Below are positions 1,657 through 55,155 of a DNA stretch of 64,000 bases, piece after piece. How positions within the stretch are numbered: the stretch's first letter is position 1; each line of letters starts with the position of its first letter. The notes below the pieces were generated by a model, which made no database searches, was not told the origin of the DNA, and saw only the letters and a program-made list of their open reading frames with translations. The stretch comes from Candidatus Cloacimonadota bacterium (GTDB lineage Bacteria > Cloacimonadota > Cloacimonadia > G963667145): contig OY762940.1 of the NCBI GenBank assembly GCA_963667255.1, positions 1,280,001 through 1,344,000 of the forward strand, in the 5' to 3' direction. The position numbers and the translations under genes are program-made.

Positions 1657-1662
1657 TGTCAA
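1657..1662 (-). promoter_or_regulatory. Putative -35 element for the DUF296-PGI/PMI-rseP unit
   Basis: TTGACA 73 bp upstream of the start; TAGCTT at 16-bp spacing. Confidence 0.55.
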
Positions 1663-1781
1663 CTCTTAGTTATCAGGTTTATCTGTGCTTTTGCTCAAAA
1701 TAACTCTGTCAAAAATAATTAGTTACGCCAATCTAACCCTGCTATAACAACACTTCCACAGTATTTTCCCAAAATTAGTAG

Positions 1782-1787
1782 TTGACA
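1782..1787 (+). promoter_or_regulatory. Putative -35 element for the first gdh
   Basis: TTGACA 55 bp upstream of ATG; no canonical -10. Confidence 0.55.
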
Positions 1788-1836
1788 GAAAAGGTGGGAA
1801 TTAATTTTGTCGTCAACATAAAGGTAAAGGTAGGTA

Positions 1837-51783: not shown

Positions 51784-53274
51784 TTACCTCATCTGCGGAA
51801 AGAGCATAACATCTCTGATAGCATCATTTTCCGTGAGCAACATAATGAGCCTGTCCAAACCAATTCCCAATCCACCTGCAGGAGGCATTCCGTATTCCAA
51901 AGCCTCCAAAAAATCGTAATCCACAACATTTGCCTCATCATCACCCATCTCTCTTTTTTTGGCTTGGTCATGCAATCTTTCGGACTGCTCCAGTGGGTCG
52001 TTCAGTTCGGAAAAAGCGTTCGCAAACTCCTTTCCTCCAATGAAAAGTTCAAACCTATCCGTAAGCCTTTTGTCGTCGTCTTTCTCTTTTGCCAAAGGAG
52101 AAATCTCTTTCGGATAATCCACCACGAAAGTCGGTTGAACCAACTTTTCCTCGACAAAAGCATCAAATATCTCAGCCAGCAAAGCTCCTGCTCCCTTGGA
52201 TTTATCAATTTCGATGTTATTTTTCTTGCAAAAAGCAGACAATTTTTCATAATCAAAAGCGGAAAAATCCTCTCCCGTTTTTTCTCGCACCAACTCCAAC
52301 ATAGTAGCTTTTCTAAAAGGAGATGCCACTTTGATATCGTTCCCATTAAAATGAAACTCGCTCTTGCCCATCACTTCCTTAGCAGTCCGCACTATCACCT
52401 CTTCGGTAATCTCCATCATTCCCTGCAAATCGGTGTATGCCTGATAAAGCTCCATGCAAGTAAACTCCGGATTGTGAGTCCGGTCAACACCTTCGTTTCT
52501 AAAATTTTTCCCAATCTCATACACCTTCTCATATCCACCGACAATAAGTCTTTTCAGATACAATTCTGTCGCAATTCTCAAGAAAAAATCTTTTCCCAGC
52601 GAGTTGTAAAAAGTCGTGAAAGGTTTGGCATTAGCTCCGCCATACAGAGGTTGCATTACCGGCGTGTCCACCTCCAAGAAACCTTTACTATCCAAAATCT
52701 CACGAATTTTTTTAATAATCTCAGCTCTTTTTACGAAAGTCGCTTTCACGGAAGGGTTCAAAATCAAATCCAAATATCTCTTGCGGTATCTGAGTTCCGT
52801 GTCAGAAAATTCGTCAAATTTGACCAATTTCCCCTCAACCTCTTTCTGCTTCACAGTCGGCAAAGGTCTTATCCCCTTGCACAACATCGTCACTTTGTTC
52901 GCTTTCAGAGAGAACTGTCCCGTCTGGGTCACGAAAGCAATCCCTTGCACCTGAACAATATCGCCAAGGTCAAAAAGTTTGAAAACTTCGTAATTCTCGT
53001 CTCCGGTCTCCTGCTTGCTCACATAAACCTGCATCCTACCCGTAGCATCTTCCAAATCCGCAAATCCAATCTTCCCCTGACGACGCATCGCCCTCAATCT
53101 GCCACACAATATCACCTCTTGCGAAGAGCTGACAAATCCATCCTCATCGCCCAACAAATCCGCTATGTTATTGGTTCGCTGATTTTTCACAGGATACGGA
53201 TTTACACCCAACTCCTTCAATTTCTGTAACTTCTGCTTTTTCAAACCTATCAACTGCTTATCTTCTTGCATCAT
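51784..53274 (-). CDS. lysS: Lysine--tRNA ligase (class II)
   Basis: RYRKRYLDL, FRNEG..THNPEF, YGMPPAGGLGIGLDRL. Confidence 0.97.
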   Translation of the reverse strand: MMQEDKQLIGLKKQKLQKLKELGVNPYPVKNQRTNNIADLLGDEDGFVSSSQEVILCGRLRAMRRQGKIGFADLEDATGRMQVYVSKQETGDENYEVFKLFDLGDIVQVQGIAFVTQTGQFSLKANKVTMLCKGIRPLPTVKQKEVEGKLVKFDEFSDTELRYRKRYLDLILNPSVKATFVKRAEIIKKIREILDSKGFLEVDTPVMQPLYGGANAKPFTTFYNSLGKDFFLRIATELYLKRLIVGGYEKVYEIGKNFRNEGVDRTHNPEFTCMELYQAYTDLQGMMEITEEVIVRTAKEVMGKSEFHFNGNDIKVASPFRKATMLELVREKTGEDFSAFDYEKLSAFCKKNNIEIDKSKGAGALLAEIFDAFVEEKLVQPTFVVDYPKEISPLAKEKDDDKRLTDRFELFIGGKEFANAFSELNDPLEQSERLHDQAKKREMGDDEANVVDYDFLEALEYGMPPAGGLGIGLDRLIMLLTENDAIRDVMLFPQMR

Positions 53275-53672
53275 CTTTCCTCGTTCAACTCTCTTGTATT
53301 ATCTTCTAAAAATTTCATTTTAACTCTAATAGTGCCAGCGGGCAACAAACTCTCGGCAATTTTTGACCACTCAATAAAACAAATCCCCTGCTCAAAACAC
53401 TCGTCCAAACCAAGCTCATATAACTCATCAACCTCTTGCAATCTATACAAATCCAAATGGAAAATCGGAACTCGCCCCTGATAACAATTCATCAACACAT
53501 AAGACGGACTCGTAATCTCTTCGCTGACTCCCAAATTCTTGCATAACTCCTTAATCAAAAAGGTTTTGCCAACTCCAAGAGGACCGTCAAAAGTTACCAC
53601 AGAGCCAACAACCAGTCTATCAGCCAAATTTCGGGCATAATTTTGGCTATCTCTCTTGCTCCTGATTATCAT
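53271..53672 (-). CDS. tsaE: t6A biosynthesis ATPase TsaE
   Basis: GPLGVGKT, SPSY, HLDLYRL, IEW. Confidence 0.94.
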   Translation of the reverse strand: MIIRSKRDSQNYARNLADRLVVGSVVTFDGPLGVGKTFLIKELCKNLGVSEEITSPSYVLMNCYQGRVPIFHLDLYRLQEVDELYELGLDECFEQGICFIEWSKIAESLLPAGTIRVKMKFLEDNTRELNEER

Positions 53673-54949
53673 AAATCCAACAAAAATTGCTTGAACTCAG
53701 CGTAGTCGGTGCTCATCGGCATTGCAACTTTTTCTCGTTTTGCATAATCTGCCAATCGTTCCGGAAGTTCCACTTTTTCGCCAATTATATTTTCCACCTC
53801 TTCCAAAAATTTAGCCGAATGAGCAGTCTCCGCAAAAACACCGTATTTCCCTTGTGGCAAAAGTTTTTTCAATCCCAAATAAGCGAAAGCCCCATGCGGA
53901 TCCATCAGATATCCAAAATTGTCATAAACCTCTCGGATAGCCACACGAGCCGTCTCATCATCAAAAGATATTCCCTCAAGGTCGTCACGAAATTTGTTCA
54001 AATCGTTTTCATAAAAATCGAACAACCGCCCCATATTACTCGGATTGCCCACATCCATCGCCGAAGCGATAGTGTGAATGGTTTGCTTAGGCTCATAGGC
54101 TCCCGATTGCAAATATCGTGGCATTACATTATTGGCGTTGCAGGAAGCAACCACTTTTTCCACGGGCAAGCCCATCTCTTTGGCAAAAACACAGGCGGTG
54201 AGATTGCCAAAATTGCCACTGGGGATGCTGACCCAAAAACTATCCTGTTTAATCTGCGAAAAAGCCCCAAAATAGTAAAATGATTGCGGAATAAGACGAC
54301 CGATATTGATAGAATTAGCAGAAGAAATCTGCATATTTTCCGCCAAATCCACATCGGATAACGCCGCTTTTGCCAAAGCCTGACACGAATCAAAATCGCC
54401 GGAAACTTCCAACGCCGTGATGTTTTGCCCAAGAGTTGTCAGTTGTTTTTCCTGCAAAGGACTAACTTTGCCCGATGGATACAAAATCACGACTCTTATC
54501 CCCTCAACTCCGAGAAATCCATTGGCGACAGCACTGCCGGTATCTCCAGAGGTCGCAACTACTATCGTGATTTCTCTGTTCAGATTTTTGCCCAATTCCC
54601 GAAGAAGCCGAGACATAAAGCGAGCTCCAAAGTCTTTGAAAGCAAGAGTTGGTCCGTGGAAAAGTTCCAGTGAACCGATGCCATTAGCAATATCCACAAC
54701 AGGAGCGGGAAAATTGATAGAGTTCCCCACAATCTCTTCTATCTGGGAATTGCTCAAATCTTCGTCCAAAAAACTCTTGGCAATTTCCAAAGAAATCTCT
54801 TGCAAACTCATTGCCTTCAATGAAGACAAAAATTTTACCTTCGGCAACGAACACGGCATGTAAAGCCCTTTGTCCTTGGGCATTCCTTGCACGATAGCTG
54901 TGCTCAAATCGACTATTTCGCGTCTGTTATTTGTATTATAAAATTTCAT
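53669..54949 (-). CDS. thrC: Threonine synthase
   Basis: ELFHGPTLAFKD, ATSGDTG, SANSIN, PSGNFGN; TTGACA at 54989-54994. Confidence 0.95.
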   Translation of the reverse strand: MKFYNTNNRREIVDLSTAIVQGMPKDKGLYMPCSLPKVKFLSSLKAMSLQEISLEIAKSFLDEDLSNSQIEEIVGNSINFPAPVVDIANGIGSLELFHGPTLAFKDFGARFMSRLLRELGKNLNREITIVVATSGDTGSAVANGFLGVEGIRVVILYPSGKVSPLQEKQLTTLGQNITALEVSGDFDSCQALAKAALSDVDLAENMQISSANSINIGRLIPQSFYYFGAFSQIKQDSFWVSIPSGNFGNLTACVFAKEMGLPVEKVVASCNANNVMPRYLQSGAYEPKQTIHTIASAMDVGNPSNMGRLFDFYENDLNKFRDDLEGISFDDETARVAIREVYDNFGYLMDPHGAFAYLGLKKLLPQGKYGVFAETAHSAKFLEEVENIIGEKVELPERLADYAKREKVAMPMSTDYAEFKQFLLDL

Positions 54950-55155
54950 TCATTCTCCAAGCCATTAAAAATCTATAAACTTCTTTTTTGTCAAGCAGAA
55001 GCCACTACTATATGTTGATAAAACAGCTCTTTTTAGTTGTATTAATAAAAAAGTCTTGTAATTTTTCTTTCTCCCCTTTTTGAAAACTTCAATCTATTTT
55101 TATGATATTTTCACCATTAAAAGTTGAATTAATTTCAGAAAATACTTTGAATTTT

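Follow-up and report, generated by a model that had tools for sequence, protein, structure and literature searches.

TTGACA-dominated promoters with a probably much reduced -10 element in a genus of Cloacimonadota

The 64,000-nucleotide stretch of DNA analysed here (the window) belongs to the genome of a Candidatus Cloacimonadota bacterium (G000; one contig, 1,587,896 bases, 98.9% complete), the type of family f1 and genus g1, which has five further species of 1.5-1.6 Mb each. An earlier note on the window had drawn attention to the hexamer TTGACA, which resembles the -35 box of sigma-70 promoters and stands ahead of many operons with hardly any -10 box of the form TAnnnT behind it. We consider these sites to be, probably, the housekeeping sigma-70 promoters of the genus, in which an upstream A/T tract precedes a near-perfect TTGACA and, after a spacer of 16 bp, only the last T (T-7) of the -10 element is left. 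Capture of the adenine at -11 (A-11) by sigma region 2 is the textbook nucleation step of promoter opening, and the main RNA polymerase likely opens these promoters without that supposedly essential base. The proposal in the earlier note of a distinct grammar dominated by the -35 box, with almost no -10 sequence, holds across the whole of G000 and also in five congeneric genomes. Judged from sequence, it would be a real inversion of the sigma-70 promoter rule, genus-wide and graded across the phylum.

Results

TTGACA is enriched upstream of genes and faces them

Genes were called with a dicodon model of our own (1,447 genes, 91% coding; some start codons are approximate). In 583 upstream regions TTGACA occurs 193 times in the sense orientation against 50 expected under a second-order Markov model, with TATAAT not enriched (53 against 66), and no hexamer is more over-represented than CTTGAC and TTGACA, which rank above the Shine-Dalgarno words. 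The 357 gaps between tandem genes contain 103 sense and 14 antisense copies, while the 47 convergent gaps contain four of each, a density of 0.46/kb that compares with 0.38/kb in coding background. Distances to the start codon peak at 50-69 nt. Relative to shuffled or modelled DNA, a comparison that the earlier note had suggested, the hexamer is therefore both strongly enriched and gene-directed. Hexamers of the GTCAG type, also enriched upstream, were rejected as a promoter signal after being traced to microsatellites; such intergenic repeats lie at 983.7 kb and 1480.3 kb of the G000 contig C1, with a 5-base unit present more than 20 times, an 8-base unit, and an identical short end flank.

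The statement that TTGACA stands at almost every operon start was too strong, although it holds for about half of the operons. Of 430 operon leaders, 232 contain exact TTGAC where about 48 would be expected, namely 121 of 175 divergent ones (20.2 in shuffles) and 111 of 255 tandem ones (27.6 in shuffles), and 155 of the 430 contain exact TTGACA; with one mismatch allowed the number rises to 349 leaders against 237 expected. The grammar thus applies to half of the operons or more, but not to nearly all of them. No second class based on the -10 box alone emerges from the 198 leaders without TTGAC, in which TATAAT is found 15 times (15.1 expected) and the extended -10 pattern TGnTAnnnT 25 times in sense and 25 times in antisense.

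Only the last T of the -10 box stands out

The sequence behind the box was evaluated on the 162 TTGACA sites of G000, a sample anchored on a perfect -35, with offset 0 assigned to the first T of the hexamer. A T at offset 27, 22 nt after the hexamer, is present in 101 of the 162 sites (p 1.7e-13), with T-12 (47/162, p 0.21) and A-11 (69/162, p 0.14) at background, the latter also among the sites that carry T-7 (44/101, p 0.18). TAnnnT at 16-18 bp is not above chance, being found in 7 of 162 sites against 13.8+-3.5 in dinucleotide shuffles, so the genome-wide motif discovery anchored on TTGAC that had been recommended yields no normal TAnnnT in the logo. An apparent depletion of TAnnnT under mononucleotide shuffles (6 against 17.0) was discarded in favour of this reading, since TA steps are scarce in these regions and such shuffles overstate the effect. 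The looser pattern nAnnnT occurs 66 times against 50.1+-6.4 in shuffles, mostly owing to the T.

In terms of information, the six -10 positions together contribute 0.32 bit, compared with 0.85 bit for the A/T tract (offsets -9 to -3). The A+T fraction is 0.84-0.93 at offsets -7 to -4, 0.81-0.83 at 19-21, where G falls to 6-8%, and 0.88 at 27, followed by a GC-richer stretch at 29-30 (A+T 0.46-0.55); the logo has no TG signal. A variable-spacer expectation-maximization model (15-19 bp) placed 80% of 139 sites in one register, with a log-likelihood of 163 against 63-92 in shuffles, and uncovered no hidden TA. The true register is a 16-bp spacer, not the 17 bp assumed earlier, and with an informative A/T tract and a retained T-7 the promoters do not consist of the -35 box alone, as a strict wording would have it.

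The sites in the window are as follows, each with its distance to the downstream gene (start position in brackets).

1657..1662, minus strand: TTGACA -35 box, 73 nt upstream of a PCC-domain gene (1589), then pgi/pmi; TAGCTT at 16 bp
1782..1787, plus strand: TTGACA -35 box, 55 nt upstream of glutamate dehydrogenase (1837); position conserved in a relative
3329..3334, plus strand: TTGACA, 144 nt upstream of the second glutamate dehydrogenase (3473); has T-7
4960..4965, plus strand: TTGACA, 85 nt upstream of a 418-amino-acid (aa) gene without Pfam/NCBIfam match
6377..6382, plus strand: TTGACA, 58 nt upstream of rex (6435)
7101..7106, plus strand: TTGACA, 54 nt upstream of sppA (7155); has T-7
11872..11877, minus strand: TTGACA, 95 nt upstream of an outer-membrane beta-barrel gene (11782)
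11901..11906, minus strand: TTGACA, tandem second box, 124 nt upstream of the beta-barrel gene (11782); has T-7
16515..16520, plus strand: TTGACA, absent from the earlier list, 41 nt upstream of a called start (16556)
18515..18520, plus strand: TTGACC, 34 nt upstream of the rarD ATG (18549); has T-7; candidate leaderless mRNA
25294..25299, minus strand: TTGACG, 94 nt upstream of a nucleotide-sugar dehydratase gene (25205); forms a back-to-back pair with the eno promoter
25318..25323, plus strand: TTGACA, 79 nt upstream of enolase (25397); upstream A/T tract, has T-7
31125..31130, plus strand: TTGACT, 46 nt upstream of a 124-aa gene without Pfam match
33353..33358, minus strand: TTGACA, 62 nt upstream of an SsnA-like aminohydrolase gene (33296)
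33390..33395, plus strand: TTGACA, 57 nt upstream of a PAP2 gene (33447); has T-7
37082..37087, minus strand: TTGACA, 61 nt upstream of asnS (37026); has T-7
44223..44228, minus strand: TTGACA, 111 nt upstream of an 88-aa open reading frame preceding atpG and arginine genes; has T-7
47956..47961, minus strand: TTGACA, 62 nt upstream of a 447-aa gene heading the smpB-dxr-dapB run; has T-7
50060..50065, minus strand: TTGACA, 59 nt upstream of a peptidase M30 gene (50006); has T-7
54989..54994, minus strand: TTGACA, 45 nt upstream of thrC (54949); has T-7

The genes that follow these sites have ordinary housekeeping or metabolic roles, examples being the two glutamate dehydrogenases, rex, sppA, rarD, eno, asnS and thrC. 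All 19 sites that had been listed before lie where they were reported and face the downstream gene, 16 as TTGACA and one each as TTGACC, TTGACT and TTGACG. A single TAnnnT at 16-18 bp was found among them, as described (the TAGCTT of site 1662, at 16 bp), and the recurring T falls on the 22nd base past the hexamer (offset 27) in 13 of the 19 and on the 23rd (offset 28) in 5. The distance of 45-95 bp to the start codon applies to 15 of the 19, the full range being 34-144 nt, and two hexamers quoted at 17-bp spacing, GATTTT and ATTTTT, are actually at 16 bp.

The hexamer behaves as a -35 box

Stable RNA genes limit where transcription can start. Of 23 tRNA/tmRNA leaders, 16 have TTGAC 38-70 nt ahead of them (at 38-41 in six cases), and both 16S genes have it at 112 nt; none of the 16 tRNA/tmRNA leader sites has TAnnnT at 16-18 bp, and 11 have T-7. 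Since the box may stand as little as 38-41 nt before a tRNA leader, transcription should start no later than about offset 37, and the gene-facing orientation together with the placement before these leaders indicates that the hexamer behaves as a sigma-70 -35 box. An A is present at offset 34 in 88 of 162 sites (p 9e-6) and at offset 35 in 82 of 162, and we predict that transcription starts at offset 34-35. At offset 34 from TTGAC(A) there are ten ATGs, and a Shine-Dalgarno word is present in 3 of 21 genes that start at offsets 33-36 against 125 of 180 that start at 47-70, which fits leaderless starts. Candidate leaderless genes number about 20 genome-wide and include rarD (window 18515-18551, plus strand), with its ATG at the predicted start site.

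The -10 box erodes gradually across the phylum

We applied the identical pipeline to 90-400 kb samples of 13 other genomes (12 Cloacimonadota and Allobaculum). Each of the 12 Cloacimonadota has a 5- to 12-fold upstream excess of TTGACA and no enrichment of TATAAT. Families f2, f3, f8 and f9 have TAnnnT in 35 of 115 sites against 18.4+-3.7 expected; in f5 and f7 it is nAnnnT that is enriched (43 of 76 against 25.4) and TAnnnT is not (10 against 8.0); f6, at 4 of 20 against 3.2 expected, gives no clear signal; and in two congeners of G000 neither pattern is enriched (TAnnnT 3 of 40 against 3.1, nAnnnT 11 against 11.5). Whole-genome spacer counts, which cover 64 Cloacimonadota out of 151 searched and, from the Allobaculum phylum (Bacillota), 15 genomes out of 26, mix in non-promoter background and come from related genomes that are not statistically independent. 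In these, the ratio of TAnnnT at 16-18 bp to that at 8-10 bp is 0.71 in f1 (six genomes), 0.97 in f5, 0.93 in f7, 1.07-1.16 in f6 and f4, 1.63 in f9 and 1.95-1.96 in f2, f3 and f8, with 1.49 for the Bacillota group. The -10 box thus erodes in a graded manner, from TAnnnT through nAnnnT to the T only, and the grammar of f1 is the far end of this phylum-wide gradient.

The 16-bp register is shared as well. Among TAnnnT matches, the 16-bp share has a median of 49% in 30 Cloacimonadota (35-65%) against 24% in 11 Bacillota (18-40%), and a T at offset 27 is present at 49-59% in six f1 genomes and at 40-64% in 20 other Cloacimonadota, compared with 23-34% in eight Bacillota. Since the -10 boxes of the relatives sit at a 16-bp spacer, the lone T corresponds to the T-7 of that box. 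Within the genus, at ortholog promoters whose proteins have median identities of 70-88%, 56 of 71 TTGAC sites of the relatives are matched in place, and TTGACA itself, enriched 6.5-fold, persists from one species to another. In 40 distinct ortholog pairs, identical positions number 27-32 of 40 in the upstream tract, 16-25 in the -10 window and 14-25 in the spacer.

The RNA polymerase and its sigma factors

G000 encodes one group-1 sigma (RpoD, 580 aa, region 4.2 intact), two small sigmas of extracytoplasmic-function size and a halved sigma-54. In all 34 Cloacimonadota RpoD sequences aligned, the melting core YATWWIRQ is unchanged and region 4.2 is standard. Traits of the whole phylum are NV(R/K)L in region 2.1 (L-to-V) and YDY in region 2.3 (F-to-Y), which we take to lie at the T-7 and A-11 pockets, respectively. 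Compared with 28 other Cloacimonadota, the genus alone has DAVK for DPVR in region 1.2, NVKL for NVRL in 2.1 and SIS for AIT in 2.4; the S before I in region 2.4 is also found in f7, f14 and f15, and the T-to-S change there in a gammaproteobacterium and in Actinoplanes. The region-3.2 finger of the genus, likewise unlike that of the 28 others, is two residues longer than in proteobacterial sigmas, and the stem of the genus in the RpoD tree is long (1.0 change per column). Region 2 of RpoD hardly differs between f3 and f5, two families that are unlike in the TA of their -10 boxes, so the cause cannot lie wholly in that region. The housekeeping sigma, which the earlier note had named as a possible cause, accordingly receives little support, as regions 2.3-2.4 keep the melting residues and are nearly alike with and without the TA.

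The RpoD tree (a quick method on 39 rows; two sequences below 450 aa were excluded, and genomes G036 and G069 had no RpoD at the cut-off) joins f1, f5, f7, f14 and f15 with a support of only 80, and we therefore do not claim a single origin of the loss of TA. As observations in their own right, the RpoD sequences L045-L049 (f7, f14, f15) form a long branch, a second sigma divergence in the phylum, and f7 and f14 have Lys in place of the conserved region-2.4 Arg.

The CarD- or RbpA-like accessory factor that was also suggested likewise receives little support. The CarD C-terminal domain was detected in none of the 33 Cloacimonadota searched, with 2 of 2 outgroups positive; a DksA/TraR finger and RbpA were not found in G000, the one genome searched for them; and the sole RID domain belongs to Mfd. 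Genes for RelA/SpoT, TopA, gyrase and HU-like proteins are present, and extra supercoiling through loss of topoisomerase I was ruled out by the presence of both TopA and gyrase. The beta-prime zipper and the alpha subunit's C-terminal domain (alpha-CTD) appeared standard by eye against E. coli motifs.

The beta subunit has one extra residue directly before the flap-tip helix. The five alignments with solved polymerases that are shown each need one gap at that place, and the matched lengths of the other bacterial beta entries listed agree, with plastid entries deviating in the opposite direction. By match length, 14 of 14 Cloacimonadota are ungapped and 2 of 2 outgroups one residue shorter, and the insertion was read directly in genome G003. 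Since the beta flap positions sigma region 4 and thereby sets the spacer length (PMC2613000), the insertion is a candidate, not a proof, for the origin of the 16-bp spacer.

The sigma-54 gene is of interest in itself. In G000 (C1:345620-346318, minus strand) the protein is cut to 232 aa, with a short N-terminus and the C-terminal DNA-binding part, and most of the core-binding region seems to be gone. Its counterparts in the congeners G002 and G016 score alike (open frames of 236 aa and, with a single TAG inside the matched part, 278 aa), while frames of 478-523 aa are found in 28 of 30 genomes of other families, the remaining two having short or split matches. The 198 leaders without TTGAC contain no sigma-54 motif.

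Discussion

A possible route of promoter opening

The start sites, the sigma that reads the sites and every step of opening are putative, and we envisage the following sequence of events. Binding energy would be provided from upstream, by the alpha-CTD on the A/T tract and by sigma region 4 on the consensus -35. Opening would be nucleated by the A/T-rich stretch (offsets 19-27), the -11 pocket accepting whatever base is there, and the open state would be locked by capture of T-7, as at the Pr promoter of Pseudomonas (see below). CarD, DksA and RbpA would not be needed. The one-residue insertion before the flap-tip helix would displace region 4 and fix the spacer at 16 bp throughout the phylum. 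We offer only tentatively, as possible rather than probable, the combined proposal that the flap insertion resets the ruler to 16 bp and that, in the genus, core enzyme and RpoD alone open hundreds of promoters, including those of rRNA and tRNA, with neither A-11 recognition nor a helper.

Several observations weigh against this account or limit it. T-7 is present in only 62% of the sites in G000 and in 19 of 40 in two congeners, and in ungapped ortholog pairs the T at offset 27 is conserved in 22 of 40, no better than its neighbours; a faint preference for A-11 may be left, given that nAnnnT is slightly above shuffles. The share of leaders without exact TTGAC is 46%. Strong -35 boxes may accompany weak -10 boxes in any bacterium, and our sites were picked by a perfect -35. 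As a control at the DNA level, the Allobaculum outgroup proved uninformative (TTGACA without excess, 14 against 11.9; n=11 sites), and the outgroup comparison therefore rests on the whole-genome counts, where the Bacillota ratio is itself modest (median 1.59, with 2 of 15 genomes at or below 1). A second peak of 11 ATGs at offset 38 rivals the ten at 34 and weakens the leaderless signal. Finally, the flap insertion and the 16-bp spacer co-occur in one clade only and count as a single event, and as the insertion is also present in families that keep the TA it cannot explain the loss of TA.

Alternative explanations

Promoters of the form described could instead be opened by a lineage-specific protein that binds RNA polymerase, of the CarD or GcrA kind. 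Alphaproteobacteria lacking T-7 have been proposed to depend on CarD (PMC8407463), Pr is very weak without DksA and ppGpp (PMC3526299), and the near identity of f5 and f3 in region 2, set against their unlike TA, points outside sigma. Against such a helper stand the absence of CarD in all 33 Cloacimonadota, the confinement of RID to Mfd, the failure to find DksA/TraR or RbpA in G000 (GcrA and new families were not searched), and the absence near the sites of any additional motif that would fit a DNA-binding activator, and we regard it as unlikely. A -10 read-out relaxed by RpoD itself, through what the genus has substituted in regions 1.2, 2.1 and 2.4 and through its longer 3.2 finger, appears to us about equally improbable: the long stem, DAVK, NVKL, SIS and the finger speak for it, as do the phylum-wide L-to-V and F-to-Y changes, but YATWWIRQ is unchanged in 34 of 34 sequences, f5 lost T-12 despite a standard region 2.4, and the T-to-S change of that region recurs in other bacteria. 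Such changes could account for the last step, the loss of A-11 in f1, and not for the whole gradient. Both a helper protein and a changed sigma can add to the explanation that we favour instead of replacing it.

One could also speculate that the -10 box simply decayed by drift in a reduced genome, leaving transcription weak and imprecise with no special mechanism. The genomes of 1.5-1.6 Mb, against 2-4 Mb in relatives, would suit this, as would the fast RpoD, the halved sigma-54 and the broken-up atp operon. Drift should, however, erode the -35 too, which is enriched and kept between species; the rRNA, tRNA and enolase promoters share the grammar; and TA coupling is likewise missing in f5 and f7, whose genomes reach 4.7 Mb, all of which makes drift a rather poor prospect. 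Least credible of all, to the point of near dismissal, is that a global DNA-binding protein recognizes TTGACA and the true promoters lie elsewhere. TTGACA/TGTCAA can form half of a palindromic regulator site, and the start sites of our own account are predicted from sequence. The back-to-back TGTCAA/TTGACA pairs, however, have no fixed spacing (36 pairs over 34 distances), and the palindrome was rejected on that basis; the orientation is strict, the downstream pattern is fixed (T at 27, A at 34-35), TAnnnT follows the same hexamer at 16-17 bp in sister families, and no other promoter class was found.

Relation to known promoters

Housekeeping promoters with a -10 element reduced to T-7, as we favour, have a precedent in Pr of Pseudomonas putida, a "-10-less" sigma-70 promoter that works with T-7 alone given a near-perfect -35 (PMC3526299). 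The logo found here resembles Pr at the level of a population, with a near-perfect -35 and T-7 as the sole consensus base of the -10. Pr, however, is one weak promoter dependent on DksA and ppGpp, for which its authors found no counterpart elsewhere in the genome, and it requires exactly 17 bp and a -15 element and has no UP element (PMC3526299). Here, in contrast, hundreds of operons including rRNA and tRNA are concerned, with 16 bp, an upstream A/T tract and no TG signal, and the DksA/TraR finger was not found in G000, though a RelA/SpoT gene is present.

Mapped-promoter surveys of 49 genomes find the -10 more conserved than the -35 and a median spacer of 17 bp throughout (PMC12641261; bioRxiv 10.64898/2026.09.23.753901). 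The promoters of the genus share with the canonical sigma-70/sigma-A form the TTGACA, a proximal UP-like tract, T-7, a GC-richer discriminator and a predicted purine start, as well as a group-1 sigma with standard regions 2.3-2.4 and 4.2; they differ in that the conservation is inverted, with a strong -35, a -10 of 0.32 bit and T-12 and A-11 at background, and in a modal spacer of 16 bp where the surveys give a median of 17. Alphaproteobacterial promoters without T-7 are alike in that a supposedly invariant -10 base was lost lineage-wide with sigma region 2 unchanged (PMC8407463; PMC7703639), and are otherwise the mirror image, keeping the TA, losing T-7 and, as has been proposed, depending on CarD, whereas this lineage keeps T-7, loses the TA and has no CarD in the 33 Cloacimonadota searched. 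As with the extended -10 (TGnTAnnnT), one element makes up for a missing one in a "mix and match" manner (PMC2613000), except that there it is the -35 that is dispensable, and here there is no TG or TAnnnT signal.

The word stem Cloacimonad does not occur in the main text of PMC12641261 or of bioRxiv 10.64898/2026.09.23.753901, although the per-phylum tables of the preprint may cover the phylum, and a literature search, mostly limited to open papers without supplements, returned no paper about promoters in Cloacimonadota or about loss of the TA across a genome. Pr, the one verified promoter with T-7 only, was described as a class of its own (PMC3526299). If our reading is correct, melting independent of the -10 would be the norm across a genome in this genus, and housekeeping, rRNA and tRNA promoters of this form would show how far the -10 rule bends. 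The phylum would offer a graded natural series (TAnnnT, nAnnnT, nnnnnT) on a nearly constant sigma region 2, making testable both what substitutes for the read-out of A-11 and which feature of the enzyme fixes the spacer length. Promoter finders built on TATAAT are predicted to miss these genomes.

Further observations

The window contains tandem glutamate dehydrogenase paralogues (1837-4798, plus strand) with one TTGACA promoter each. At 42992-43840 (minus strand) a solitary atpG precedes a run of arginine-synthesis genes (argC-, argJ-, argB- and argG-like), and the atp operon is broken up, with ATP synthase alpha/beta matches at 707 kb and 1151 kb of the genome. Elsewhere in G000, two giant open reading frames of 11,215 and 10,918 aa (C1:377030-410677, minus strand, and 526084-558840, plus strand) have lipoprotein-like starts and together make up 4% of the genome.

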